From NCBI GenBank assembly GCA_041497835.1, contig JBGQHF010000002.1, positions 16,500 to 80,499 of the forward strand: a stretch of DNA of 64,000 bases, read 5' to 3'. This document shows, piece by piece, positions 2,356 through 25,258 of this stretch (position 1 is the stretch's first letter; each line of letters begins with the position of its first letter). The position numbers and the translations under genes were made by a program. Origin of the DNA: Terriglobia bacterium (GTDB lineage: Bacteria > Acidobacteriota > Terriglobia > Acidiferrales > UBA7541). Below the pieces are notes generated by a model. That model made no database searches. It was not told the DNA's origin and saw nothing but the letters and a program-made list of their open reading frames with translations.

Positions 2356-3657
2356 ATGTTTCTTCGCCTCGTTGCCGATTCCTTCTCGCGCCGCCTGAGC
2401 CGGCAGCTTCTGACGGCCGCCGCGCTCGCCCTGGGCATGGCCGTGGCCACCGCGGCCTTGAGCGTTTCACTCGATGTGGGCGACCGGCTGGCGCGCGAAT
2501 TCCGCAGCCTGGGCGCGAACCTGCTGGTCACGCCACAGGCCGATTCTTTGCCGCTCGAAATCGGCGGAGTGGACTACCGGCCGGTCAACGCGGGCGCGTA
2601 CCTGCCGGAAGCGGACCTCGGGAAGCTCAAGACGATTTTCTGGCGGCACAATATCCTCGGTTTTGCGCCCGTGCTGGAAGTTCCGGCGGTGATTCTGACG
2701 CCGCCCGTCGGCATGGACGACGCGCCGTGGGTTATCACGCCCATGACCGTAATCGGAACGTGGTCCCAGCACGCGGTTTCCGTTCCGGATGGCGTCACCG
2801 TTCACACCGGGGTTGAAAAAACAAATCCCTGGTGGCGGGTCGAGGGCCGCTGGTTCAGCGAAGCGGGGGGCGAGTGCGTCGTCGGCCGGTTCTTCGCGCG
2901 CCGCACGGGAGTGCGAATCGGCGGCACCATTCTGGTGAAGAACAGCCCTCAGAATATTCCGTTGCAGGTGACCGGAGTCCTGGATACCAGCGGTCCGGAA
3001 GACGACGCGATCGTCGTGCCCATTGGGCTGGCACAGAAGCTCTCCGACAAACCCGGACAGTATCGCCGGCTCTATGTCAGCGCCTTGACGAAGCCGGAAG
3101 ATGAGTTTGGGAGGCGTGATCCGAAGTCCATGACATCCGCGGAATTCGACCGCTGGTTCTGCACCCCGTATATCTCCGCGATTGCTCTGCAGATTCAGCA
3201 GGCTCTGCCCGGCACGGACGCGCGCGTGATCCGTCGCGTGGCCGAAGGCGAGGGCCGCATCCTGACGCGTCTGCGAAATTTGCTTTGGCTCGTGGCGGGG
3301 GCGGCGTTGCTGGCCGCGGCTCTGGCCGTGGGCGCGACGTCCGCGGCCACGATTATCGAGCGCCGCACGGAGATCGGCCTCATGAAGGCACTGGGCGCGG
3401 GGACGGACATGGTGAAGAGCCTCTTTGCGGCGGAGCAGATTCTCCTCTCCCTGGTAGGCGGTGCGGCCGGCTATGCGCTCGGCATCATTCTAGCGCGGCT
3501 CCTCGGACAGATTGTTTTCGGCGCGGCGCCGCAGCCTTCGCCGCTGGTCTTTGCCGTTGTGATGGGGCTTGCCGTTGCCGTCACGCTTCTCGGCAGCGCG
3601 GTTTCCCTGCGGCGGGCTGCACGTCTGGAGCCCGCTCCAATTCTGCGAGGCGAATGA
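2356..3657 (+). CDS. FtsX/MacB-family ABC permease
   Basis: N-terminal TM, EFRSLGANLLV, ERRTEIGLMKALGA, three C-terminal TMs. Confidence 0.88.
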   Translation: MFLRLVADSFSRRLSRQLLTAAALALGMAVATAALSVSLDVGDRLAREFRSLGANLLVTPQADSLPLEIGGVDYRPVNAGAYLPEADLGKLKTIFWRHNILGFAPVLEVPAVILTPPVGMDDAPWVITPMTVIGTWSQHAVSVPDGVTVHTGVEKTNPWWRVEGRWFSEAGGECVVGRFFARRTGVRIGGTILVKNSPQNIPLQVTGVLDTSGPEDDAIVVPIGLAQKLSDKPGQYRRLYVSALTKPEDEFGRRDPKSMTSAEFDRWFCTPYISAIALQIQQALPGTDARVIRRVAEGEGRILTRLRNLLWLVAGAALLAAALAVGATSAATIIERRTEIGLMKALGAGTDMVKSLFAAEQILLSLVGGAAGYALGIILARLLGQIVFGAAPQPSPLVFAVVMGLAVAVTLLGSAVSLRRAARLEPAPILRGE

Positions 3658-4802
3658 TGTTCTGGCGGATTCTACGGCGGCTGCTGCGATCCAACCCCGC
3701 GCGCATGGCCACGGTGCTTCTTGCATTGGGCGCGGGTGCCGCGGTCACCGCCGCGCTGCTGAATCTGAAGGTGGACGCCGAGCGCCGCTTGACGACGGAG
3801 TTCCGCTCCTTCGGCGCAAATGTCGTCGTTTCGCCGCGCGCCGGCACAGCAGACAACGTGGAAACGATCGACGAGGGCCTCCTGAATCGCGTACCACTGG
3901 AGTTCGAAAGTGCGCCGGTTTCCGCTGTCCCGTTCCTCTATTTTGTAGCCGGCGTCTCGAAGTCCGGCGAAGCCCGGCCGCAGACCGTCACCGCCGTTGT
4001 CGCCGGCACGAATCTGTCTGGCCTCAGCCTCGTCGGTCCGGGGTGGAGGTTCGATCCCGTCGTTCCGCTGAAATCCGAGGGAGCGGCTTGCCTTGTGGGA
4101 GCGCGGGTTGCGGCGCAGTTTGACGCGCATCCAGGAGAAATACTGACCCTTCGCAGTGCCGGGAAGGGAGAAAAATGCAGAATCGGCGCGAGTGTCTCTG
4201 CCGGCGGCACGGAAGATAACCAGGTCTTTGTCGAGTTGCCAATGGCGCAGCGGCTGGCCACGCAGCCGGGACGAATCAGCTTGATTCAGGTAAGTGTGGC
4301 GGGCACTCCGCTGCGAATTGAAGCGTTCATCGCGCGGCTTTCGGGGGCGCTGCCGGAGGCAAACGTGCGCGGCGTGCGCCAGTTCAGTGACGCGGAAGCA
4401 CACCTATACGGCCGAATTCGCGGTCTGCTGACCGCGACCGTCGCGCTGATTCTCGTGCTCACCGGACTTTGCGTGATGGCGGCAATGACCAACGCCGCCA
4501 TGGAACGCAAGCACGACGTGGGACTCATGAAGGCCATCGGCGGGCCGGTGGCGCGCGTCTTGCGGCTTTTCCTGGCCGAAGCGGCGATTCTTGGTGTTGT
4601 GGGTGGAATCCTCGGCGCTGCGGCGGGAATTGCGCTTTCGATTTGGCTGGGCAAAGCGGTGTTTGGCGTGGCGGCGCAGCCGCGCCTGATTGTGTATCCT
4701 GTTACGGTCGTCCTCACGGTGCTGGTCGCCATTGCCGGAGCGTTTCCGCTGCGGCGTCTCGCGGGTGTGAAGCCGGCCGTCATTTTCCGGGGAGAGGCAT
4801 GA
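3654..4802 (+). CDS. FtsX/MacB-family ABC permease
   Basis: ATGA overlap with the previous gene; EFRSFGANVVV, ERKHDVGLMKAIG. Confidence 0.88.
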   Translation: MMFWRILRRLLRSNPARMATVLLALGAGAAVTAALLNLKVDAERRLTTEFRSFGANVVVSPRAGTADNVETIDEGLLNRVPLEFESAPVSAVPFLYFVAGVSKSGEARPQTVTAVVAGTNLSGLSLVGPGWRFDPVVPLKSEGAACLVGARVAAQFDAHPGEILTLRSAGKGEKCRIGASVSAGGTEDNQVFVELPMAQRLATQPGRISLIQVSVAGTPLRIEAFIARLSGALPEANVRGVRQFSDAEAHLYGRIRGLLTATVALILVLTGLCVMAAMTNAAMERKHDVGLMKAIGGPVARVLRLFLAEAAILGVVGGILGAAAGIALSIWLGKAVFGVAAQPRLIVYPVTVVLTVLVAIAGAFPLRRLAGVKPAVIFRGEA

Positions 4803-5881
4803 GCGCGCAGGTCATCGTCGAATCGCTCGTCAAGCAGTACGGCGGTCTGCGCGCGCTCGACGGACTCAGCCTGTCCGTGGACGCCGGCGAATGGATCGCC
4901 CTCATGGGCCCTTCCGGTTCGGGCAAGACGTCGCTCATCAATATCCTCGGCGGCTTGGACACGCCGACATCGGGCCGCGTGCTCGTGGACGGCGTGGAAG
5001 TCTCCCGGTTGAGCGAGTCCGAGCTGGTGCGCTACCGCGCGGAGAAGATCGGCTTCGTCTTCCAGCAATTTCATCTCGTGCCGTACCTCACGGCGGTCGA
5101 AAACGTGATGCTCGCGCAGTATTTTCACAGCGTGACCGACGAACCGCAGGCCGCGGAAGCGCTGCGCCGCGTCGGACTGGGCGACCGCCTGACGCATCTT
5201 CCTTCGCAGCTCTCCGGCGGCGAACAACAGCGCGTAGCCATCGCGCGGGCGCTCATCAACCAGCCAAAACTGATTCTCGCCGATGAACCGACCGGCAACT
5301 TGGATGAGGCCAACGAGAAAATCGTGATGGAGATTTTCCGCGGGCTGCACCGGGCGGGGCACACCATCCTGATGGTGACGCACGACACGGGCCTGGCGCG
5401 CGAAGCCGATCGCCGCGTCGAGCTTTCCCACGGGCGCCTCGATCAGGTCGCGGCCATTTCGACCGAGGATCAGGTCCGCTTCGATCATCTGCTCGAACAG
5501 ATCTGGGTGTGCGGGGAAGAGGGCACCGCCGCAAAGGTCGAACGCATTCGCACGCCCGGCTCCGCGGATCCCCTCCGTACCCTCGGGCGTCTCGTGGACC
5601 TTGAGCTCGTCGCCGTCCGCGATTCCGAAGTGCAGCTCACGGAGCAGGGAAGCCGCCGCGCCCGCGACGTCATCCGCAGGCACCGCCTGGCCGAACGCCT
5701 CTTCAAGGATACGTTCGCGATCGACGATTCCGAAGCGCACACGCAGGCCTGCAAGTTCGAACACATCATCAGCCCGGAGCTTGATCACCGCATCTGCAGC
5801 TTTCTCGGCCACCCGAAAACCTGTCCGCACGGCAATCCCATTCCTCCGGGCGATTGCTGCCCCGAGTCTTCTTCCCGCTAG
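4799..5881 (+). CDS. ABC ATPase (LolD/MacB type) fused to a DtxR/MntR-like metal-binding/dimerisation domain
   Basis: Walker A GPSGSGKT, LSGGEQQR, ILADEPTGNLD; C-terminal RRHRLAERLF, ACKFEHIIS, LGHPKTCPHGNPIP. Confidence 0.88.
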   Translation: MSAQVIVESLVKQYGGLRALDGLSLSVDAGEWIALMGPSGSGKTSLINILGGLDTPTSGRVLVDGVEVSRLSESELVRYRAEKIGFVFQQFHLVPYLTAVENVMLAQYFHSVTDEPQAAEALRRVGLGDRLTHLPSQLSGGEQQRVAIARALINQPKLILADEPTGNLDEANEKIVMEIFRGLHRAGHTILMVTHDTGLAREADRRVELSHGRLDQVAAISTEDQVRFDHLLEQIWVCGEEGTAAKVERIRTPGSADPLRTLGRLVDLELVAVRDSEVQLTEQGSRRARDVIRRHRLAERLFKDTFAIDDSEAHTQACKFEHIISPELDHRICSFLGHPKTCPHGNPIPPGDCCPESSSR

Positions 5882-5896
5882 GAGCCGGCAACCCTC

Positions 5897-6283
5897 ATGC
5901 CCACGCCCGTTGATTCCCGGAAAAAACCTTCGAGCATTAAGATTCACGTCTCGACCGGAGCGGGTGTGGACATCGCCTGGGCGGACGGCCACGCCAGCCA
6001 CTACGACTTCGCCTATCTGCGCGAACAGTGCCCCTGCGCCATGTGCAATGACGAACGGTATAAGAAGGCCTCGATGGGGGGCAGCGTCCTCGCGCCCTCG
6101 GCGCTCCTGCCCATGTACAAACCGAAGCCGAGGGCGCAGTCGGCCACGCCGATGGGAAACTACGCCATCCAAATCAGTTTCACCGACGGCCATTCCACCG
6201 GCATCTTCAGCTACGACTACTTCCGCATGATCTGTCCTTGCGGGGAGTGCGCAAAAGCCTTCCGCGAGTCCGAGGCCGGTTGA
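5897..6283 (+). CDS. DUF971 (GBBH-like N-terminal) domain protein
   Basis: IAWADGHASHYDFAYLREQCPCAMC ... GNYAIQISFTDGHSTGIFSYDY. Confidence 0.85.
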   Translation: MPTPVDSRKKPSSIKIHVSTGAGVDIAWADGHASHYDFAYLREQCPCAMCNDERYKKASMGGSVLAPSALLPMYKPKPRAQSATPMGNYAIQISFTDGHSTGIFSYDYFRMICPCGECAKAFRESEAG

Positions 6284-6365: not shown

Positions 6366-8642
6366 ATGAGCTCCAATACCATCGGACCCGCGGCTCCCGG
6401 CGGCCGCGGCAGCGCGATCCCACGCGTCATTGTCGCGACAACGGCCCTCCTTACCTTCATCTCGTTCTGGCGCGCCGCGGCCATCGTCCTCAATGACCTC
6501 GCCTCCTCGGCCTACTACGCCGGCGGCGAAGCAGAAGGCTTCGTCGGAAAGTCTGCGCCGTGGTTCATTCTGGCGGTCATGCTCTTTTCCTACGCCGTCC
6601 GCGCCGTGTACGTCGAAAGCTGCAGCATGTTCGTTCGTGGCGGTGTGTACCGCGCCGTCAAGCAGGCGCTGGGCGGCACGCTGGCCAAATTCTCCGTCTC
6701 GGCGTTGATGTTCGACTACATCCTCACAGGGCCAATCAGCGGCGTGACCGCCGGCAAGTATGTTGCCGGCCTCGTAAACGAGCTCTTTGCCTACTTTCAT
6801 GTGCAGGCCTATCTTCAACCAAGCGTAACGGCTGCCGTGTTCGCGGTGGCTGTGACCCTCTATTTCTGGTGGCAAAACATCAAGGGAATTCCCGAATCAA
6901 GCGAAAAAGCGCTGTACATCATGAAGCTCGTCACCGTCATGGTGGTACTGCTCATAGGCTGGTGTTTCTATACAGTTTGGGTCCGCGGCGCCCACCTGCC
7001 GCCGTTCCCGACCGCGAAGACCATTGTTCTCGGGGAGAACGCCTTGGGCTGGCTCCATGGCGTGGAGTTGGGGAAACTGTTTGGACTCGTGGCTATTTTT
7101 GTGGGGCTGGGCCATTCCGTGCTGGCGATGAGCGGGGAGGAGTCCCTCGCTCAGGTCTATCGGGAAATCGAACACCCCAAGCTGCCCAATCTGAAAAAAG
7201 CCGGGCTCGTCATCTTCGTTTATAGCCTCTTGTTTACCTCGTTGGTTTCCTTCTTTGCCGTGATGATCATCCCAGACGACGTGCGTCAGGGCTTTCTGCA
7301 AAATCTGATCGGCGGTCTGGCGATGAACCTCCATGGGCCATTCATCGCGCGGCTGGTCTTTCACGGTTTTGTGGTGGTGGTTGGTACGCTGATCCTGGCC
7401 GGCGCCGTCAATACGGCGATTATCGGCTCGAACGGCGTGTTGAACCGGGTTTCCGAGGATGGCGTTCTGGCTGCTTGGTTCCGGCAGCCGCACCGGCGCT
7501 TTGGGACTTCCTCTCGCATTATCAACATTGTCGTCACGCTTCAGATCATCACAATTCTCATCAGCCGCGGCGACGTCACCTTCCTCGCGAATCTCTATGC
7601 CTTTGGCGTGATCTGGAGTTTCGCGATGAACAGCCTCTCCGTGCTCGTGCTTCGCTACAAACACCCGGGAGAGCGCGAATACCAGGTTCCGTTCAATTTG
7701 CGCATTCGCGGTGTGGAGATTCCCATCGGCCTGGGGCTGATTGCATTGATTTTGTTCATCATCGCCATCGTGAATCTCTTTACGAAACCTGCGGCCACGG
7801 TTTCAGGCGTTGTTTTCTCACTTCTGCTTTTTCTGGTGTTCACGCTTTCGGAGCGCTCTGCGCGCAGGGGGAAAGCCGGCGAGTCTCGCGAGGAAAGCAT
7901 GGACCAGTTCAACCTCGGCCAGGAAAGCGAACTGACTCCCGCTGCCGTCGGTGCGCGCCCGGGCAACATCATCGTACCCGTCAGCAATTACCACTCGCTT
8001 TATCATCTGGGAAGCGTCCTCGACCGGTTCAAGCCAGAGCGCCGTGACGTCGTGGTTCTGCACGTGCGCGTACTGCGCCGCGCCGCTTCCGGCGGGCACG
8101 AACTCGATCCGGAGCAGCTATTTGGAAGTGTCGAGCAGCACCTCTTCTCGCAAGCGCTCTCCATGGCCGAAAAGCGCGGGAAAAGCATCCGTCTCGCGGT
8201 GGTCGGCGCGAACGATCTGTGGGACGGCATCCTGCGCGCCGCGCAGAGCCTCCAGTCCGCCACGATTACCATCGGCACCTCCGCCAAGTGGACCACCGAG
8301 GAACAGGCGCGGCAGATCGGTGATGCTTGGGAAAAGCTGGGCGACCCCAAGCCCCAATTCAATCTGGAAATTCACACTCCCACCGGGGACAAGATTTTCA
8401 AGGTCCTGGGACCTCATGCGCCGAACCTGACGACCAACGAGGTCAATCAGCTCCACCAGCTCTGGCTACGCTTCAGCGAGGTCCTGGCGCCCGAAGAGCT
8501 CCACCACCACGACGTCGTCCATTTCGCGCTGGAGGAAGTGCGGAAGGAGATCGCAGAGGGGAAGGAAGACGAAGTCGTCAAGCGCCTGCGCGACCACATC
8601 GAAGAAAACAAGCGCAAGCGCCCGCCCCGGCCCAGTTCGTAG
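6366..8642 (+). CDS. APC-family permease with a cytoplasmic USP-like C-terminal domain
   Basis: About 12 TM helices, LNDLASSAYY, DYILTGPIS, followed by a soluble domain (IIVPVSN..VVVLHVRV). Confidence 0.8.
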   Translation: MSSNTIGPAAPGGRGSAIPRVIVATTALLTFISFWRAAAIVLNDLASSAYYAGGEAEGFVGKSAPWFILAVMLFSYAVRAVYVESCSMFVRGGVYRAVKQALGGTLAKFSVSALMFDYILTGPISGVTAGKYVAGLVNELFAYFHVQAYLQPSVTAAVFAVAVTLYFWWQNIKGIPESSEKALYIMKLVTVMVVLLIGWCFYTVWVRGAHLPPFPTAKTIVLGENALGWLHGVELGKLFGLVAIFVGLGHSVLAMSGEESLAQVYREIEHPKLPNLKKAGLVIFVYSLLFTSLVSFFAVMIIPDDVRQGFLQNLIGGLAMNLHGPFIARLVFHGFVVVVGTLILAGAVNTAIIGSNGVLNRVSEDGVLAAWFRQPHRRFGTSSRIINIVVTLQIITILISRGDVTFLANLYAFGVIWSFAMNSLSVLVLRYKHPGEREYQVPFNLRIRGVEIPIGLGLIALILFIIAIVNLFTKPAATVSGVVFSLLLFLVFTLSERSARRGKAGESREESMDQFNLGQESELTPAAVGARPGNIIVPVSNYHSLYHLGSVLDRFKPERRDVVVLHVRVLRRAASGGHELDPEQLFGSVEQHLFSQALSMAEKRGKSIRLAVVGANDLWDGILRAAQSLQSATITIGTSAKWTTEEQARQIGDAWEKLGDPKPQFNLEIHTPTGDKIFKVLGPHAPNLTTNEVNQLHQLWLRFSEVLAPEELHHHDVVHFALEEVRKEIAEGKEDEVVKRLRDHIEENKRKRPPRPSS

Positions 8643-19777: not shown

Positions 19778-20341
19778 CTAGTGGCTCGGTTTGTCGTTCG
19801 GTCCACCGTTGGAACCCGAAGCAAGCAGCGTTCGAATCGCCGCTTCAAAGGTCTCACGATCCCCGGCACCGAAGTAGTGGCCGATCTGTCTTCCATCCGC
19901 AGCGTAAAAGAAAGAGGCGGGAAGGGATCCATTCCAGGCGGCGTTGACGGCCCGCACGAATTCGTCGTTCTTTCCCGCGCGCTTGCGGTAGTTCGGAAAG
20001 ACCGGCTGATGGCGCGCCAGGAACCGCCGCACCAGGATCATTTCGCCGTCGTCATCGAGGCTGACGCCGACAACGTGCAGACCTTTCGGTGCGTATTGTT
20101 TTGCGAGCTGGTTGAGGAGCGGGTATTCGTCGCGGCAGGGTTCGCACCAGGTAGCCCAGAAATTCACGAGAAGCGCCTTGCCGCGATACTTCTCGAGGAG
20201 TTGCTTGTACCCCTGCTCGTCGATCAGCTCCGGGTCGCGGGGAGCCTTTGCCTGCGGTGCCGCCAGCGCAGCCGCGGCAGCCAACAAAAGAACCACGCCA
20301 AGCCAAGTCCGGTTTCTCACAGTGATCTCCGTCCCTGGCAT
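19778..20341 (-). CDS. TlpA-family thiol-disulfide oxidoreductase
   Basis: Signal peptide; LLVNFWATWCEPC; LPAS. Confidence 0.88.
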   Translation of the reverse strand: MPGTEITVRNRTWLGVVLLLAAAAALAAPQAKAPRDPELIDEQGYKQLLEKYRGKALLVNFWATWCEPCRDEYPLLNQLAKQYAPKGLHVVGVSLDDDGEMILVRRFLARHQPVFPNYRKRAGKNDEFVRAVNAAWNGSLPASFFYAADGRQIGHYFGAGDRETFEAAIRTLLASGSNGGPNDKPSH

Positions 20342-20361
20342 TCTATCCACTCGCGTCACAG

Positions 20362-20377
20362 TTGAGAATCTGATTCC
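20362..20377 (+). repeat. attL core
   Basis: TTGAGAATCTGATTCC, identical to 24847-24862 (18/19 match if extended by 3 nt). Confidence 0.88.
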
Positions 20378-20438
20378 TCCGTCTAAAACCCCGCCCAAAC
20401 AAAGGCCCGAAGCAACACGGTGTCCAACAGGTGTCCAG

Positions 20439-20759
20439 ATGCTCAAAAGATACGGTAAGTGGATGGCCGACTGGCGGGACCAACACGGCAAGCGCCACAG
20501 GAAAGCCTGCCGCTCGAAGACCGCCGCCGCGCAACTCGGTGCGAAGATGCGCCGATGCGAAGCAGCAAAAAAAGACCAGCCCTCGGGGACATCGGCCAAA
20601 TCCTCACGACGTGGGCGCAAGGCTGGCCGCCGAACACCGCGAACCGCCAAGTCGCGCTCGAACTCACCGCGGAAATCGGCCACCTACAACCGCGCCAACT
20701 CAGCAGCTTCATCGCAGAAGCCTTCTTCGCAAAATGGCGAACACGCTACTCGCCCATGA
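20439..20759 (+). CDS. Integrase arm-domain-like ORF (zero frame); possible N-terminus of a frameshifted integrase
   Basis: MLKRYGKWMADWRDQHGKRHRKACRSKTAAAQ resembles arm-type DNA-binding domains; the A7 run at 20567-20573 joins it to the catalytic frame by a -1 shift. Confidence 0.65.
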   Translation: MLKRYGKWMADWRDQHGKRHRKACRSKTAAAQLGAKMRRCEAAKKDQPSGTSAKSSRRGRKAGRRTPRTAKSRSNSPRKSATYNRANSAASSQKPSSQNGEHATRP

Positions 20760-21403
20760 CGCTCTACACACGCCGAGCCATCTACCAACGACTTCTCGGT
20801 GTCCTCACGCAGTACGGCGCACCGCCCATCAAACTCAGCAAGGTCAGAAAACCAGAACCACGCGGCGTCACCGCAACGCAGGAAGAAATCCAGAAACTTC
20901 TAGGCGCAGCGACGCCGGCACTCCGACTCTTCATCATCCTCTGTTGGCAGCTCGCCCTCCGAAGAAGCGAAGCCCTGGCCGTCACACCGCTGTCCTACGA
21001 CGACAAAACCCATACAGTCTGCATCCGGACCAAAGGCGGAAAGATGCGACGCATCCCGCTCACCAGCGACGCGGAAGAAATGATCCGCGTCGCCAGCAAA
21101 TCCGCAGCAGACCCCTCCGAAAGCTGCGTCTCCATCCTCAACGGAAGGCCGATGAAGCGCATGGACAAACGCTGGTGGCAGCTAACGAAGAAATGCAACC
21201 TCACTCACATCCACCCCCACGACCTCCGCAGAACCACCGCGACGAATCTCTACCGCACGACCCACGACATCCGGGCCGTGCAGCAGTACCTCGGACACAC
21301 ACAACTGGTGTCCACAACCCACTACCTCGCGCCACTCTCCGAGGAGCAGCTGCGCGGGATGCACCAACTCCTCAACTTCCACGGAAAGGGAGCGCCCAAC
21401 TGA
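20555..21403 (+). CDS. Tyrosine recombinase/integrase, core-binding and catalytic portion
   Basis: LALRRSE (R), RTKGGK (K), HPHDLRR (HxxR), LGH...STTHY (H, Y); all catalytic residues present. Confidence 0.92.
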   Translation: MRSSKKRPALGDIGQILTTWAQGWPPNTANRQVALELTAEIGHLQPRQLSSFIAEAFFAKWRTRYSPMTLYTRRAIYQRLLGVLTQYGAPPIKLSKVRKPEPRGVTATQEEIQKLLGAATPALRLFIILCWQLALRRSEALAVTPLSYDDKTHTVCIRTKGGKMRRIPLTSDAEEMIRVASKSAADPSESCVSILNGRPMKRMDKRWWQLTKKCNLTHIHPHDLRRTTATNLYRTTHDIRAVQQYLGHTQLVSTTHYLAPLSEEQLRGMHQLLNFHGKGAPN

Positions 21404-21585
21404 TGGACACCAACAAACACATGACGGACCCGGAAGCCTTCATCGCACTCGGCGACCTACTGCTAGACAACTTCGACCCACAGGACACCATGCACGGCAT
21501 CCTCAGCGACAAAAGGGTGGACGCCATCCTGACCGCGCAGCGTGCCCTCGTGGAACGCATCGCGCGCAACACCCCCATAGGCTAG
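21403..21585 (+). CDS. Element hypothetical protein (60 aa)
   Basis: TGATG overlap with the integrase stop; MDTNKHMTDPEAFIALGDLLLDNFD. Confidence 0.65.
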   Translation: MDTNKHMTDPEAFIALGDLLLDNFDPQDTMHGILSDKRVDAILTAQRALVERIARNTPIG

Positions 21586-21593
21586 AGGACACC

Positions 21594-21782
21594 ATGACGA
21601 ACGTCGCAGACCAAAGATGGATAGTCCGCATCACCTGCGGACCATGGGCCATCCGCGAACTCGTCAACGCCCCGGACCAGCGCATCGCCGCAAACCGCGC
21701 TCTGCAACTCTTCAACCACAAATTCGACCCGGACACCGCGATGACCATCACGGTGTCCCTCCAGCAGGAGCCGCACACATGA
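21594..21782 (+). CDS. Element hypothetical protein (62 aa)
   Basis: RBS-like AGAGGACACC directly before the ATG. Confidence 0.7.
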   Translation: MTNVADQRWIVRITCGPWAIRELVNAPDQRIAANRALQLFNHKFDPDTAMTITVSLQQEPHT

Positions 21783-21937
21783 TTGCCGTCTACTACGTCA
21801 AGCTCCGCAAACCAACACCACCAGCGCGGCCGCACGACAACTGCGCCTGCCGCCACGTCCGGCTACACCACGGGCCGAAACGCGGCCCCTGCACCATCAC
21901 GAACTGCCCCTGTCCGCACTTCAAGAGGACACCATGA
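21779..21937 (+). CDS. Element Cys/His-rich micro-protein (52 aa), putative zinc finger
   Basis: ATGA overlap; CACRHVRLHHGPKRGPCTITNCPCPHF. Confidence 0.65.
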   Translation: MIAVYYVKLRKPTPPARPHDNCACRHVRLHHGPKRGPCTITNCPCPHFKRTP

Positions 21938-22152
21938 GCCGCCGCACCTACCGCTGCGTAATCGAGTGGAACCACCGAAAGTGGGGTCCACAAATGCAGA
22001 AGAGCGTGGCGGAAGGTACCTCGATCCGCCGCGCCATCAACAACGCACTCCTGGCCTTCTTCTCGGACACCAGCCAGCGAGAGCATCGCCGCGACGCCCA
22101 CGCCCACATCGAAATCAAGGCGTGGCGCGTCAAGAAAGAAGCCGCGAAGTGA
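21934..22152 (+). CDS. Element hypothetical protein (72 aa)
   Basis: AGAGGACACC before the ATG; ATGA overlap. Confidence 0.7.
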   Translation: MSRRTYRCVIEWNHRKWGPQMQKSVAEGTSIRRAINNALLAFFSDTSQREHRRDAHAHIEIKAWRVKKEAAK

Positions 22153-22373
22153 CGCCACTCGACGCGCTAGAAATCGCAGCCACCGTCCTGATCGCACTCT
22201 GGTGCGGTCAGACCATCGTGCACATCACCCGAACCGCCATCCGAGAGGACACCGCGACGAAACTCCAGCAAGAGGCAGAGCACGGCGCAACCAAACGCCA
22301 CGTCCGCGACGCCCACGGTCAAGGACACCAAGAAGTCAAACCACCAACACCCAAAGAAAGGAGGACCCCTTGA
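22149..22373 (+). CDS. Element single-TM protein (74 aa)
   Basis: GTGA overlap; LEIAATVLIALWCGQTIVHI hydrophobic segment. Confidence 0.6.
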   Translation: MTPLDALEIAATVLIALWCGQTIVHITRTAIREDTATKLQQEAEHGATKRHVRDAHGQGHQEVKPPTPKERRTP

Positions 22374-22531
22374 ACGAATACACAGTGACCATCAGCGACG
22401 GAATCCTCTCCATCCCGCAAACCGTCACAGCCGAAACCCACAAGGCCGCCGCCCTCGAAGCCCTGACCCATCTCGACGAATCGAAGCTCGACCCAGCGGC
22501 CGACCTCATCATCAACGTCACCACTCCCTGA
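22370..22531 (+). CDS. Element hypothetical protein (53 aa)
   Basis: TTGA overlap, AGGAGG upstream; MNEYTVTISDGILSIPQTVTAE. Confidence 0.6.
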   Translation: MNEYTVTISDGILSIPQTVTAETHKAAALEALTHLDESKLDPAADLIINVTTP

Positions 22532-23598
22532 GCGACCGCAGCGGCGTGCAGGGCTGAGAAGCGCCAGCACGCCGCCGCTCGTCTCACGGAGCCGCAGCGG
22601 CATCGGCGTGCCATCGGCGCATCGCCACGGGCCGCAAGAGGAGCGAGCATGCGGCCCGCGCTCGCGCTGGAAGAAGCACGCCTCACGCCGCTGCTGGTCC
22701 TCGGCCCTCGACCAGCGGTGTCCATCGCCGGACAAATCTCAGAGTTGCGCAGCTGTAAAAAGTGGATGCCTGCGCGCGGCACGCGTTCGGCCGCAAATCG
22801 CTTCGCTGCGTCCTCCGCCGTCGGACAGCCGCGCGAGAATCCCGCGCGGTTCTCGACCTTCACTAGTGCGGTTGCGGCGTCGCAGCATGTCGGTCGCCGC
22901 GCAAAAACAAAAGCGCGCGTCGCCCGCCCTGCGCGCCGCCGCGTCTTCCGGCACGCTCCGCCCCACGCCGTACCGCTCTCCGCACGGCGTGGGGCCCGCG
23001 TCGCGGCGGTCCTCGGCATTCGGCGCGCCCGCATCATCGAAGAACGTTATGAAGGATGCGGGCAAACGCGCCGAAAGCCTGTGGGCCGCGCCCGCGCAGA
23101 ACCAGCGCGGTCGCCGGTTCGTGTCCGTGCCGGAACGGGCCGCGCGGCAGCACCCGCAAAAGAGGGCGGGTGTCATGGCCGCGCGGCCCCGCGCCCCGTG
23201 CATCTCCCCTCGTCCGCAGATCGCCGCTCGTCTGTGCGGGCCACCATAGCGGGCGCGGCCTTCTGCCGCGCCCTGGTGTCCCGCAGCTCGCGGCGTTTTT
23301 TGTTGCGGCGGCTGTCCCGCCGCCGTTCGCGTCTCTATCCGTCCTCGTGTTCGGTCAGGGTCTCCACGGGGCGCGGTCCGTTCCGGCCCGGCCAACGGAT
23401 TATTGAAGAGAAAGAAACACCATCGCCCCGCGCGCCGCAGATCGAGCGATGCGGCGCGCGATGTTGCAGCCTGGGCGACCGCGATCGCGGCTCCTGGCTG
23501 GCGGGGAGCCGCGTTCGCGCTACAATCCCCCACAGCAACAGCCAACCGCTCACTGATCGGAGAGCAACCGCCCGCCACACCACGGCGGGCGGCTCCCC
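22532..23598. other. About 1.06 kb hairpin-dense, probably non-coding region inside the element
   Basis: At least 13 perfect 6-11 bp stems, e.g. 22961-22971/22984-22994, 23138-23148/23178-23188, 23429-23439/23450-23460, 23568-23576/23584-23592. Confidence 0.7.
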
Positions 23599-23919
23599 AT
23601 GACGCCCGCAGAACGCCAGCGCCGCTATCGACAGAGGCACCAAGACGAAGAGAAAAACCGTCGAGCCTCACCCCACCACAAGGAAACTCTGGCGCGCTGC
23701 AAAGCCCGCCGCGACCCCAACCGCGATCGCGAGCACAAACAAGAGCTCTACTTCCGCTTCCACGGCCACCACCACTCCGGATGCAACGCTCTGCAACTCA
23801 AAACGCCGCGCCTGTCATGGCTGGACACCGCAGGCCGCATCCACCACGACGACCTCCGCTCGGCCGAAGAAGTGATCGCCGAGCACGAAGAGAAGGAAAA
23901 AAGGGAGTCCTCACAATGA
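23599..23919 (+). CDS. Element hypothetical protein (106 aa)
   Basis: Basic helical N-terminus MTPAERQRRYRQRH; element-type codon bias. Confidence 0.7.
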   Translation: MTPAERQRRYRQRHQDEEKNRRASPHHKETLARCKARRDPNRDREHKQELYFRFHGHHHSGCNALQLKTPRLSWLDTAGRIHHDDLRSAEEVIAEHEEKEKRESSQ

Positions 23920-24224
23920 GCAAGCTGACGCCAAAAGACGCACGCAATCTCCTCGACGTTTACTTCCAGAAGGACACCAACAGCGAGACAGTCGCCGAAG
24001 CAGACCGCGACGCAAAAATCTGGCTGCGAGCGCAGACCGCAATCGTGAAAGGACACCACGCCCGCGAGCTCGCCGAAATCCACTTCGCCGACCTGTCCGG
24101 CAAAGCCACACCTACACAGCTCGAGCTACGCAACCAACTGATGAAAACAATCTGGCTGCAGGCCGAGAGCGAACAACTCGCCAGTGAGGAGGCCGCCGCC
24201 CATGCCGAAACCCACGAAACTTGA
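23916..24224 (+). CDS. Element hypothetical protein (102 aa)
   Basis: ATGA overlap with GGAG upstream; MSKLTPKDARNLLDVYFQKD. Confidence 0.7.
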   Translation: MSKLTPKDARNLLDVYFQKDTNSETVAEADRDAKIWLRAQTAIVKGHHARELAEIHFADLSGKATPTQLELRNQLMKTIWLQAESEQLASEEAAAHAETHET

Positions 24225-24417
24225 GGAGCGCCTGCAGCTGCTCGACGCCGAGCGACTCGTGCTCACCGTAGAGCTCCGCTGCGAGCTCATGCGCCAGGCG
24301 AAGAAACTCCTGCCCGCCGCGATCGCGCAGGCGCGCGCGAAGAAGGGAAGCCCCGCGCTGCTCCGAATCATCACCCGCCTGGCCATGAGGCCCGCCAACA
24401 TCGAGAGAAGGCACTGA
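24202..24417 (+). CDS. Element hypothetical helical protein (71 aa)
   Basis: GAGGAGG upstream; MPKPTKLEERLQLLDAERL. Confidence 0.65.
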   Translation: MPKPTKLEERLQLLDAERLVLTVELRCELMRQAKKLLPAAIAQARAKKGSPALLRIITRLAMRPANIERRH

Positions 24418-24846
24418 GAGCGCCGAGCGCGAAGCGCGACCGCGCCCTCAGCTCAACCAAATCCGAAAAACCGTGGGACCTCACACCCACGACCCAAAAT
24501 CGAGCGCCGCCGCTGACGTCGTGGAAGTCAACTCACTTCACTTCCAAACAACACCGCGCCTCGGGCGGCCCGGCCAGATCGGCTAGCTGTCCGGGCCGCT
24601 GCTACTCGGCGCAGATCCCCAGCTCGACCCTAAACGACCGATAATCGCCCAAAGCGCCGACCGACAAACACGCTGTCACGCACAAACCACCACCCCACCA
24701 CCCTGCCGGTCCCCGACCCGCCCCGACGGACACCAAACCCGCCAAGTGTCCAACAAACCGCTGGACACCGCAGCGAAAAGAGCGTAGACCGATAGCACAG
24801 ATGGACACCGCAGCCTATCGGACCGCAAGAGGCAGGGGCAATAGAT

Positions 24847-24862
24847 TTGAGAATCTGATTCC
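24847..24862 (+). repeat. attR core
   Basis: TTGAGAATCTGATTCC, identical to 20362-20377. Confidence 0.88.
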
Positions 24863-24875
24863 CCCCGCGTAGAAT
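24847..24875 (+). promoter_or_regulatory. Sigma70-type promoter for ferredoxin, overlapping attR
   Basis: TTGAGA (24847-24852), 17 nt, TAGAAT (24870-24875). Confidence 0.55.
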
Positions 24876-24991
24876 CAGGAGAGTCGGCTTGTTCCACCCA
24901 GCGGAGACGTGCTATAAAAGCCGTTTCGCCGGCAGGACTTCCGTCTGGAGAAGCCGCCGATTTGACCGGACCACGCTAAAGGAGATTCCTG

Positions 24992-25258
24992 ATGGCTTAC
25001 GTGATTGCCGAACCGTGCATCGGCACAAAGGACACCGCGTGTGTGGACGTCTGCCCGGTGGATTGCATCCACCCGCGCAAGGACGAGCCGAATTTCGAGA
25101 GCGAGACGCAGCTCTACATCCATCCGACCGAGTGCATAGACTGCGGAGCGTGCGTGCCGGTCTGCCCCGTCACCGCGATCTTTGCTCTGGAAGACCTGCC
25201 GGAGAAGTGGCAGAACTTCACGCCGATCAACGCGGATTGGTTCGCAAAGAAGGTCTAA
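24992..25258 (+). CDS. 2[4Fe-4S]-type ferredoxin
   Basis: [17 protein letters not shown] and [12 protein letters not shown]. Confidence 0.95.

Follow-up and report, generated by a model that had tools for sequence, protein, structure and literature searches.

A DtxR-like module fused to the MacB/LolD-type ATPase of an FTR1 iron-uptake operon in Terriglobia

The window studied here is a 64,000-nucleotide stretch of a Terriglobia bacterium (assembly GCA_041497835.1, contig JBGQHF010000002.1, positions 16,500 to 80,499), and the gene in question is the open reading frame (ORF) 4799-5881, which encodes an ATP-binding cassette (ABC) ATPase continued by a module related to the iron-dependent repressor DtxR. 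The operon and its control elements are on the forward strand. The ORF codes for 360 amino acids (aa) and its frame is uninterrupted up to the stop codon at 5879-5881. Its start codon, the ATG at 4799, shares bases with the TGA that ends the upstream permease gene (ggggagaggcATGAgc; ATGA overlap) and is preceded by the ribosome-binding site GGAGAGG. In a Pfam scan of the product, residues 20-165 match ABC_tran (E 1e-36) and residues 281-349 match Fe_dep_repr_C (PF02742; E 6.6e-29, 100 bits versus a cut-off of 27) over its full length, i.e., profile positions 1-69 of 70.

Residues 1-215 (4799-5443) form a nucleotide-binding domain of the MacB/LolD/FtsE kind (type VII ABC), as assigned by Pfam, Foldseek and NCBIfam. 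The Walker A motif GPSGSGKT (37-44), the Q-loop FQQF, the signature LSGGEQQR (138-145), the Walker B motif LILADEPT (158-165, including the catalytic Glu) and the H-loop VTHD are all found, and all of them are invariant among 95 homologs of the fused protein. The AlphaFold2 (AF2) model of the whole protein has a predicted local distance difference test score (pLDDT) of 84.5 and a predicted template modelling score (pTM) of 0.59. The nearest folds of the nucleotide-binding domain are MacB, LolD, FtsE, YbbA and aq_297 (Foldseek, TM(target) 0.83-0.90). The intact LolD/MacB-type ATPase noticed in a preliminary description of this DNA, made from the letters alone, is thus borne out by Pfam, by the motifs and by the fold. 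The best NCBIfam equivalogs are LolD, MacB and FtsE; since all scores lie below the cut-offs (216 bits versus 308 for the LolD profile, 203 versus 265 for FtsE), the ATPase is, according to these profiles, of the LolD/MacB/FtsE kind, yet none of those named proteins. It is followed by a short tether (residues 216-221, 5444-5461), in which residues 217-219 have a pLDDT <50: in the AF2 model about 3-6 residues separate the last strand of the nucleotide-binding domain from helix alpha1 of the next domain. Some Acidoferrum relatives have a His/Cys-rich insert of 21-25 aa at this position.

As Foldseek with the full-length model returned ABC ATPases only, residues 216-360 (145 aa) were modelled separately. 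This module is two-domain and DtxR/IdeR-like, the SH3-like domain 3 being absent. Residues 235-352 are collinear with residues 15-136 of DtxR, with IdeR and with the Saccharopolyspora IdeR 7b24 (phmmer versus PDB, E 1e-17 to 1e-20), and the model of the module alone (pLDDT 89.5, pTM 0.83) superposes on two-domain IdeR/DtxR structures with TM values of 0.74-0.79 over 130-138 columns (Foldseek). The collinear alignment and the superposition lead to the conclusion that both DtxR domains are present: domain 1 as a divergent winged helix (residues 222-290, 5462-5668; AF2, Foldseek and entropy), domain 2, for metal binding and dimerisation, at residues 291-336 (5669-5806; PF02742, residue mapping and conservation).

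The metal ligands of DtxR were mapped on the fused protein with a reference sequence identical to PDB entry 1bi0. M10 corresponds to H230, H79 to H295, E83 to E299, H98 to H314, C102 to C318, E105 to E321 and H106 to H322. Metal-capable residues are thus present at the seven ligand positions; six are identical and M10 is replaced by His. H230 lies about 8 residues past the end of the nucleotide-binding domain, in an alpha1 carrying D229, H230 and E233. E299 and R293/294/296 are invariant, and C318, E321 and H322 are kept in at least 96% of the sequences. The most conserved parts of the whole fused protein are the catalytic motifs and the metal/dimerisation domain. Of the motifs quoted in the preliminary description, RRHRLAE is located at residues 293-299, CKFEH within ACKFEH at 317-322 and the tail CPHGNPIP at 342-349.

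A census of domain architectures, proposed in that description, finds homologs that are fused and not two separate genes. The best 120 database homologs (76-99% identity, 352-391 aa) all combine PF00005 and PF02742. A search seeded with the most divergent fusion gives another 119 such proteins, which belong, where named, to Acidobacteria, Acidoferrales and Bryobacteraceae, with single metagenome-assembled genomes (MAGs) labelled Planctomycetes and Latescibacteria. The fused ORF occurs in >230 clusters at 90% identity (NCBI, ENA, JGI and Logan assemblies). On contigs taken from one genome per species, it is found with a length of 355-425 aa in about 56 loci of Acidoferrales/Acidiferrales, Terriglobales/Acidobacteriaceae and Bryobacteraceae. 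All of these loci, and three further contexts, have the operon FTR1/FtrD-like - FtsX - FtsX - ATPase~DtxR. The labels Patescibacteria, Udaeobacter and Dormiibacterota (loci L006, L009 and L053; 70-80% identity) were not used for the distribution, mis-binning being likely. That two genes were joined by an assembly or annotation artefact is hardly conceivable: the frame is continuous, the >230 clusters and about 56 species genomes agree, and no support for it was found. Chance is excluded because of the E-values and of the hundreds of independent fused homologs. According to this census, the ATPase~DtxR fusion is real, old, lineage-wide and tied to the FTR1 operon, so that the fusion claimed at first sight in an iron-uptake operon is both genuine and conserved.

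The module alone has 4811 relatives (exhaustive HMMER search). Among the best 150 of them, ABC fusions come only from this ATPase~DtxR family, the remainder being free DtxR-like proteins with a length of about 215-250 aa. The closest free relatives (P0136, P0401 and others) have about 215 aa, belong to Desulfobacterota/Nitrospirota and combine Fe_dep_repr_C with FeoA.

Four related operons have an ATPase without the DtxR module. In a neighbour-joining tree of the nucleotide-binding domains, these four ATPases nest within the fused clade at three separate positions and are, on this topology, secondary losses. Since the four sister operons lost the module and kept both the operon and its operator (see below), the module is an accessory, presumably regulatory, element and not a core part of the system. 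The reading that best fits these comparative data is metal-dependent feedback, i.e., a module that would act as a post-translational Fe2+ sensor controlling the ATPase; its probability can be put at roughly 0.55.

The genes around the ATPase gene are those of an iron-uptake operon. The first one (1047-2327) encodes a FetM::FetA equivalent, in which an FTR1 iron permease continues into an FtrD-like/DUF2318 domain (Pfam FTR1 2.7e-37, FtrD-like 1e-23). Its product has the motifs REGVE and REGAE and a CxxC-x13-CxxC-x14-C arrangement, the latter in agreement with the description in PMC6083913. FetM and FetA are separate genes in Campylobacter; FTR1 and DUF2318/FtrD-like form one polypeptide in all the related Terriglobia loci. 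Two permease genes of the MacB_PCD + FtsX type follow, one FetB-like (2356-3657; Pfam, synteny in about 60 loci) and one FetC-like (3654-4802; Pfam), whose stop codon overlaps the start codon of the ATPase gene. A DUF971/GBBH-like_N gene (5897-6283; Pfam 1.7e-23), 15 nt downstream of the ATPase gene, is probably the last of the transcription unit. It carries CPCAMC and CPCGEC motifs; its synteny extends over Acidoferrales-type loci, those lacking the DtxR module included.

Pfam finds neither P19/FetP nor thioredoxin (FetE/F) genes between 1047 and 6283. A tblastn search of the 64-kb window for P19/FetP gives no match either, the query being the putative lipoprotein ORF at the P19 position of an Enterococcus cluster (L061), which was not Pfam-checked. 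No second Fur or DtxR gene is found in the window by tblastn, and Rfam and tRNA scans of it give no matches. After the DUF971 gene, 6366-8642 encodes a 758-aa AA_permease_2 protein whose C-terminal part (about 260 residues) has no assignment. Farther downstream, the ORF 20459-21403 is tyrosine-recombinase-like (…HPHDLRRTTATNLYR…LGH…), and the stretch 20000-25000 has a strong strand skew (AT +0.25 to +0.28, GC −0.13 to −0.18) and few long ORFs that are convincing; this may be what is left of a mobile element.

The winged helix of the module is its least conserved part. PF01325, the profile of the N-terminal winged helix, is unmatched in the fused protein even at E<=10. EEG and the wing are separated by 4 residues fewer than in DtxR, and helix alpha2 is degenerate, being reduced to a single turn in the AF2 models. 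The preliminary description, which called this region shortened or divergent, was essentially right. The mean column entropy of the helix-turn-helix (HTH) is 2.0-2.5 bits, the highest in the protein, versus 0.5-1.0 in domain 2 and the tail. Lineage-specific indels are found in the HTH, i.e., a 9-aa turn insert in some Acidoferrum and a deletion in Bryobacteraceae. All Terriglobales (loci L017-L049) have a conserved His/Cys-rich wing insert of 28 aa, PHPPExHxHKPFVNPCH[DE]ALKP, and an acidic alpha2/alpha3 region, EHGEIAEVERMEVHGALPVSxAxEKM. This wing insert and the tether insert of Acidoferrum (L005, L008-L011, L046 and L052) are independent of each other and resemble added metal-binding loops. 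Alpha3 of the module in the window is DPLRTLGRLV, followed by a beta-hairpin wing; close relatives have DPVRTLARME. The equivalents of S37, P39 and Q43, which contact bases in DtxR/IdeR, are all replaced.

These features bear directly on the most serious alternative, namely that the module is a true iron-dependent repressor, acting on DNA either membrane-tethered or after proteolytic release at the tether. A published precedent exists in Chlamydia trachomatis, where YtgC-YtgR, a fusion of an ABC permease with a DtxR-family domain, is cleaved and the released repressor binds the ytg promoter, i.e., it represses its own operon. The complete two-domain fold (winged helix included), the conserved metal ligands and a low-confidence, probably exposed tether would all suit such a protein, and the recognition helix of the Acidoferrales clade keeps the DtxR-like T, A, R, M and E positions. 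Against it are the unmatched PF01325, the variability and the indels of the HTH, the acidic alpha2/alpha3 and 28-aa insert of Terriglobales, the replaced S37, P39 and Q43 equivalents, and the fusion partner, which is an ATPase and not a permease. The net charge of the HTH (about −3, versus about −2 in DtxR) is uninformative on DNA binding in the clade of the window and telling only for the acidic Terriglobales. The production of a free DtxR-like protein from an internal start codon was also considered and rejected: neither the tether nor the beginning of the module has an in-frame ATG, GTG or TTG before the GTG at V237 (inside alpha1), and the family has no conserved Met. This absence also counts against a released repressor. 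DNA binding is thus unlikely as a shared function of the family; it is possible for the own clade of the window.

The control region of the operon gives the other part of the answer. A sigma-70-like promoter is predicted at 980-1008 (TTGACG, a 17-nt spacer and TAAACT; 9/12 matches), the promoter scan of the region giving 2 sites versus 0.2 expected, and the layout TTGAC-N17-TAnnCT recurs in related loci. The inverted repeat that had been reported at 1019-1037 is present: it reads AGTTGCAACTGATTGTCAACT at 1018-1038, with a 7-1-7 core TGCAACT-G-ATTGTCA, begins 10 nt after the -10 and abuts a GGAG ribosome-binding site. The mechanical ORF 1020-2327 (TTG 1020) would place the repeat inside the FTR1 coding sequence. 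This was rejected, as relatives start at the position of MLSAFLIALREG, which corresponds to TTG 1047. The latter is most likely the start of the FTR1 gene, and the repeat therefore lies in the 5' leader. The motif occurs once in the 64-kb window, and a related element stands at the same place upstream of FTR1 in about 50 genome loci (nearly all). Its form is AGTTGCAAATCATTTTCAACT in Acidoferrales and an invariant TTGAAATTGAAATTCATTTTCAA in about 25 Terriglobales genomes; the Terriglobales form matches the classical Fur box GATAATGATAATCATTATC at 14/19 positions.

In metagenome contigs scanned with the exact pattern, the operator stands mostly before FTR1 operons. The same scan finds it 2-111 nt upstream of five Fur-family (PF01475) genes and, on Acidobacteria-like contigs, between a CarboxypepD_reg/outer-membrane barrel (TonB-receptor-like) gene and a peptidase gene. 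In L082, a MAG labelled Planctomycetes, fur heads the same operon, with TGAAACT-C-AGTTTCA upstream of it. There, TAGAAT and then AGTGAAACTCAGTTTCAAT precede fur in 2140-2200, the operator class being the same as at 1018-1038. The element at 1018-1038 is, by these likenesses, an operator of the Fur-box class. It is kept in the four operons whose ATPase has no DtxR module (L053, L055-57). A private operator of the fused domain was therefore rejected, the element surviving in module-less operons and its class being found at fur and receptor genes. For the same reasons, i.e., a Fur-box-class repeat retained in four module-less sister operons, the transporter-tethered regulator that had been supposed to act on the 1019-1037 repeat is not upheld. 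No private palindrome is conserved at the operon and the Fur-type operator outlives the loss of the module, which also speaks against a YtgC-YtgR-like repressor in general. Such an arrangement is, all in all, improbable, at about one chance in five.

Two other elements are found near the promoter. In 21 Terriglobales loci (L017-L048, L058), a TGTGA-N6-TCACA palindrome starts 36 nt upstream of the -35 TTGAC; the position is that of a putative class I CRP/FNR-type activator site, and the palindrome is absent in the clade of the window. At 806-826, about 170 nt upstream of the operon promoter, the window has the sequence GGGACAG-tttctt-CTGTCCC, a perfect stem of 7 bp that is not followed by a T-run.

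The module ends with a Cys/His tail, C333-x4-H338-P-x2-C342-P-H344-G-x-P-I-P-x-G-x-C353-C354 (5795-5860; alignments, AF2 pLDDT 88-95). C333, H338, C342, H344, C353 and C354 are invariant in 95/95 homologs, in about 250 fused sequences and in 120 stand-alone relatives. In solved IdeR/DtxR structures, V/L, N, S and Y/F take the place of the first four of these residues, and the CC pair has no counterpart. In L053 (7938-8747), the rest of the module is deleted and the nucleotide-binding domain is followed only by the tail TTCNFLEQPKLCPHGKPFPSSGCC, a hint that the tail may function, or at least persist, alone. The long-tether insert of Acidoferrum, HGPxHPLxCPLxNTxDCC, resembles a second copy of the tail. 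This Cys4His2 tail may be an extra metal-binding site.

It could even be asked whether the tail is the working sensor (for Zn, for an Fe-S cluster or by thiol redox) and the DtxR scaffold mainly structural, a proposal that is compatible with Fe2+ feedback on the ATPase. No other part of the module is absolutely invariant, and the tail stays so in the divergent fusions P0236 and P0270 too; it is kept alone in L053 and is duplicated, as a tail-like motif, in some Acidoferrum tethers. Moreover, the CxxxHxCC motif of ZnuC serves as a metal lock. However, C318, E321, H322 and E299 of the DtxR-type sites are also conserved in at least 96% of the sequences, and L053 is one metagenome-assembled contig. 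Four Cys residues in a loop modelled with confidence are, in addition, typical of structural zinc sites. The tail as sensor is thus doubtful, and of the three alternatives discussed here it is the least probable.

With Fe2+ sensing by the module, the following course of events can be proposed. The fused protein is the FetD-equivalent ATPase of a MacB-type machine that partners the FTR1::FtrD-like permease. With two copies of the ATPase under the FtsX heterodimer, two modules would pair through DtxR domain 2, which is the dimer interface in the family. Rising cytoplasmic Fe2+ would fill the primary-type site (H230, C318, E321 and H322) and the ancillary-type site (H295, E299 and H314), the Cys4His2 tail possibly being metal-bound too. 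In free DtxR, IdeR and MntR, the metal ties alpha1 (M10; D8/E11 in MntR) to domain 2 and so fixes the spacing of the winged helices. In the fused protein, the winged-helix domains are attached to the nucleotide-binding domains. A caliper movement of this kind would then set or lock the separation of the latter and gate their ATP-driven closure. Because alpha1 begins only about 3-6 residues past the last strand, the metal state would be passed to the spacing or the mobility of the nucleotide-binding domains. The outcome would be product feedback (trans-inhibition) on iron uptake, while a Fur-type repressor at 1018-1038 would separately control transcription. In this scheme, metal binding, the pairing of the modules, the caliper and the sign of its effect are inferences: inhibition of the ATPase by metal bound to paired modules is deduced from the conservation of the ligands and from the dimerisation role of domain 2, and the direction (inhibition at high iron) from homeostatic logic only.

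Several observations weigh against Fe2+ feedback on the ATPase. The equivalent of H295 is His in 70-86% of the family members and Arg in about 12-27%, the position of H314 is H, D or E across the family, and P0236 and P0270 have altered primary-site residues; because of this variation, canonical DtxR-type sites are not universally required. The alpha3 of the window clade, DP(V/L)RT(L)xR(M/L), resembles the QTVARME of DtxR (T44, A46, R47 and M48 equivalents). The arrangement of the domains relative to each other is uncertain in the AF2 model, as reflected by its pTM. Lastly, the FetBCD-type ABC unit has no established substrate or role, which leaves the throttled step undefined.

The last point also leaves room for a module that is not a concentration sensor, i.e., a domain that receives iron from FTR1 and hands it on (e.g., to Fe-S assembly or to the DUF971 protein), or a clamp that constitutively holds the two copies of the ATPase together. 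Strongly conserved metal sites and a Cys/His tail suit iron binding as such, His/Cys-rich inserts were gained repeatedly in different lineages, and the downstream DUF971 gene, with its Cys motifs, is syntenic. For the Campylobacter Fet system, in which the role of FetBCD is unsettled, a redox relay has been proposed. Nevertheless, the module was lost at least three times from operons that are otherwise intact, which is easier to reconcile with a modulatory role, and nothing was found that physically links DUF971 to the module. To our knowledge, DtxR-type sites have a regulatory affinity in every characterised member. A hand-off or clamp function is thus rather unlikely, less so than the tail as sensor and more so than a repressor.

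Terriglobia are among the most abundant soil bacteria, and the operon FTR1/FtrD-FtsX-FtsX-ATPase~DtxR appears to be their common FTR1-type iron uptake system. If the module senses Fe2+ as proposed, iron entry would be controlled twice, by Fur at the promoter and by Fe2+ at the ATPase, which is undocumented for FTR1/Fet systems, and the shut-off would be fast, as expected for a toxic nutrient. Such a natural iron-sensitive switch would argue that the activity of a FetBCD-type ATPase is rate-controlling for iron entry; it would offer a handle, with ligand mutants as tools, on the job of the FetBCD ABC unit in FetMP-type systems. The core of a DNA-binding regulator would clearly have been recruited as an allosteric domain; this would complement YtgC-YtgR, which is still a repressor. 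On the practical side, the annotation «ATP-binding cassette domain-containing protein» hides the sensor, and genomes with the fusion would be credited with too many transcription factors by regulon predictions that treat every PF02742 protein as one. The interest of the fusion thus lies in its abundance in soil Acidobacteriota and in its bearing on the control of Fet-type systems.

The comparison with known systems begins with FetMP-FetABCDEF of C. jejuni and E. coli (Ftr1-P19). Both systems have an FTR1 with two REXXE motifs, a DUF2318/FtrD-like Cys motif, two different FtsX-type permeases with one MacB/LolD-like ATPase, and Fur-box control, as described for the C. jejuni fetMP-fetABCDEF cluster. 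They differ in that FTR1 and DUF2318 are here in one polypeptide, that the operon has no thioredoxin genes, that P19/FetP was not found in the window, and that the ATPase carries a 145-aa DtxR-like module which FetD (Cj1663) lacks. In gene content, the operon of the window is a compact, reduced relative of the fetMP-fetABCDEF cluster.

Compared with DtxR/IdeR of C. diphtheriae, M. tuberculosis and S. erythraea, the module has 31-34% identity, the same two-domain fold and, except at M10, the same ligands. On the contrary, it is fused, has no SH3-like domain, has a degenerate alpha2 and replaced base contacts, and bears an extra Cys4His2 tail; PF01325 does not match it and no DtxR-type operator is found at the operon of the window.

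YtgC-YtgR is similar to the present fusion in that a subunit of a metal-uptake ABC system carries a DtxR-family domain as a translational fusion at its C-terminus. The partner in YtgCR is a TroC-type importer permease, whereas it is here the cytoplasmic ATPase of a MacB-type machine, with a degenerate HTH and a Fur-type operator at the operon. Permease-repressor fusions of this sort have been reported in 11 phyla. The statement of the preliminary description that DtxR, IdeR and MntR are stand-alone repressors is thus incomplete: YtgC-YtgR is a known fusion, and the alternative that follows from it had been overlooked.

Regulatory domains on ABC ATPases are best described for MetN (domain C2) and ModC, whose C-terminal domains halt transport on substrate accumulation, and for ZnuC, whose zinc-sensing domain binds Zn2+ through its CxxxHxCC motif and locks the transporter. 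In all of them, as here (residues 216-360), the extra domain is C-terminal to the nucleotide-binding domain. In MetN, ModC and ZnuC, these domains form a pair beneath the ATPase dimer, and the transporter is locked when they bind the imported substrate. The differences are that the domain is here a recruited transcription-factor core, that the machine is a type VII mechanotransducer versus type I/II importers, and that the metal probably enters via FTR1 and not via the ABC unit.

The nearest relatives of the module are the free DtxR-like + FeoA proteins, with 41-50% identity, the same shortened HTH, an identical tail and no match to PF01325 either. They differ in being unfused to an ATPase, in their C-terminal FeoA and in their acidic alpha3 (consensus P-E-x-L-L-E-E-L). 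In 2/3 contexts (L204 2688-5660 and L205 2381-5648), the gene lies directly after feoB with no separate feoA, and in L205 fur stands in front. These free relatives may be FeoB-attached iron sensors rather than repressors, which suggests that the whole tail-bearing branch works on transporters and not on DNA. More tentatively, and with less than even odds, the branch could be viewed as having given up the reading of DNA and become an iron sensor that is portable and attached to transporters, joined to FeoA beside FeoB in Desulfobacterota/Nitrospirota and to a FetD-type ATPase in Terriglobia; the caliper would have been re-used to set the distance between nucleotide-binding domains, the tail being a metal lock able to work alone (L053 type). 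In that case, a transcription-factor fold would have been exapted as an allosteric gate of a mechanotransducing ABC machine.

Neither a paper nor a curated family was found that describes an ATPase~DtxR fusion, and a 2023 review of the post-translational control of transporters does not mention DtxR. Regulatory domains on ABC ATPases and DtxR domains on ABC subunits were already known, each on its own; a DtxR-like module on the ATPase itself combines the two.

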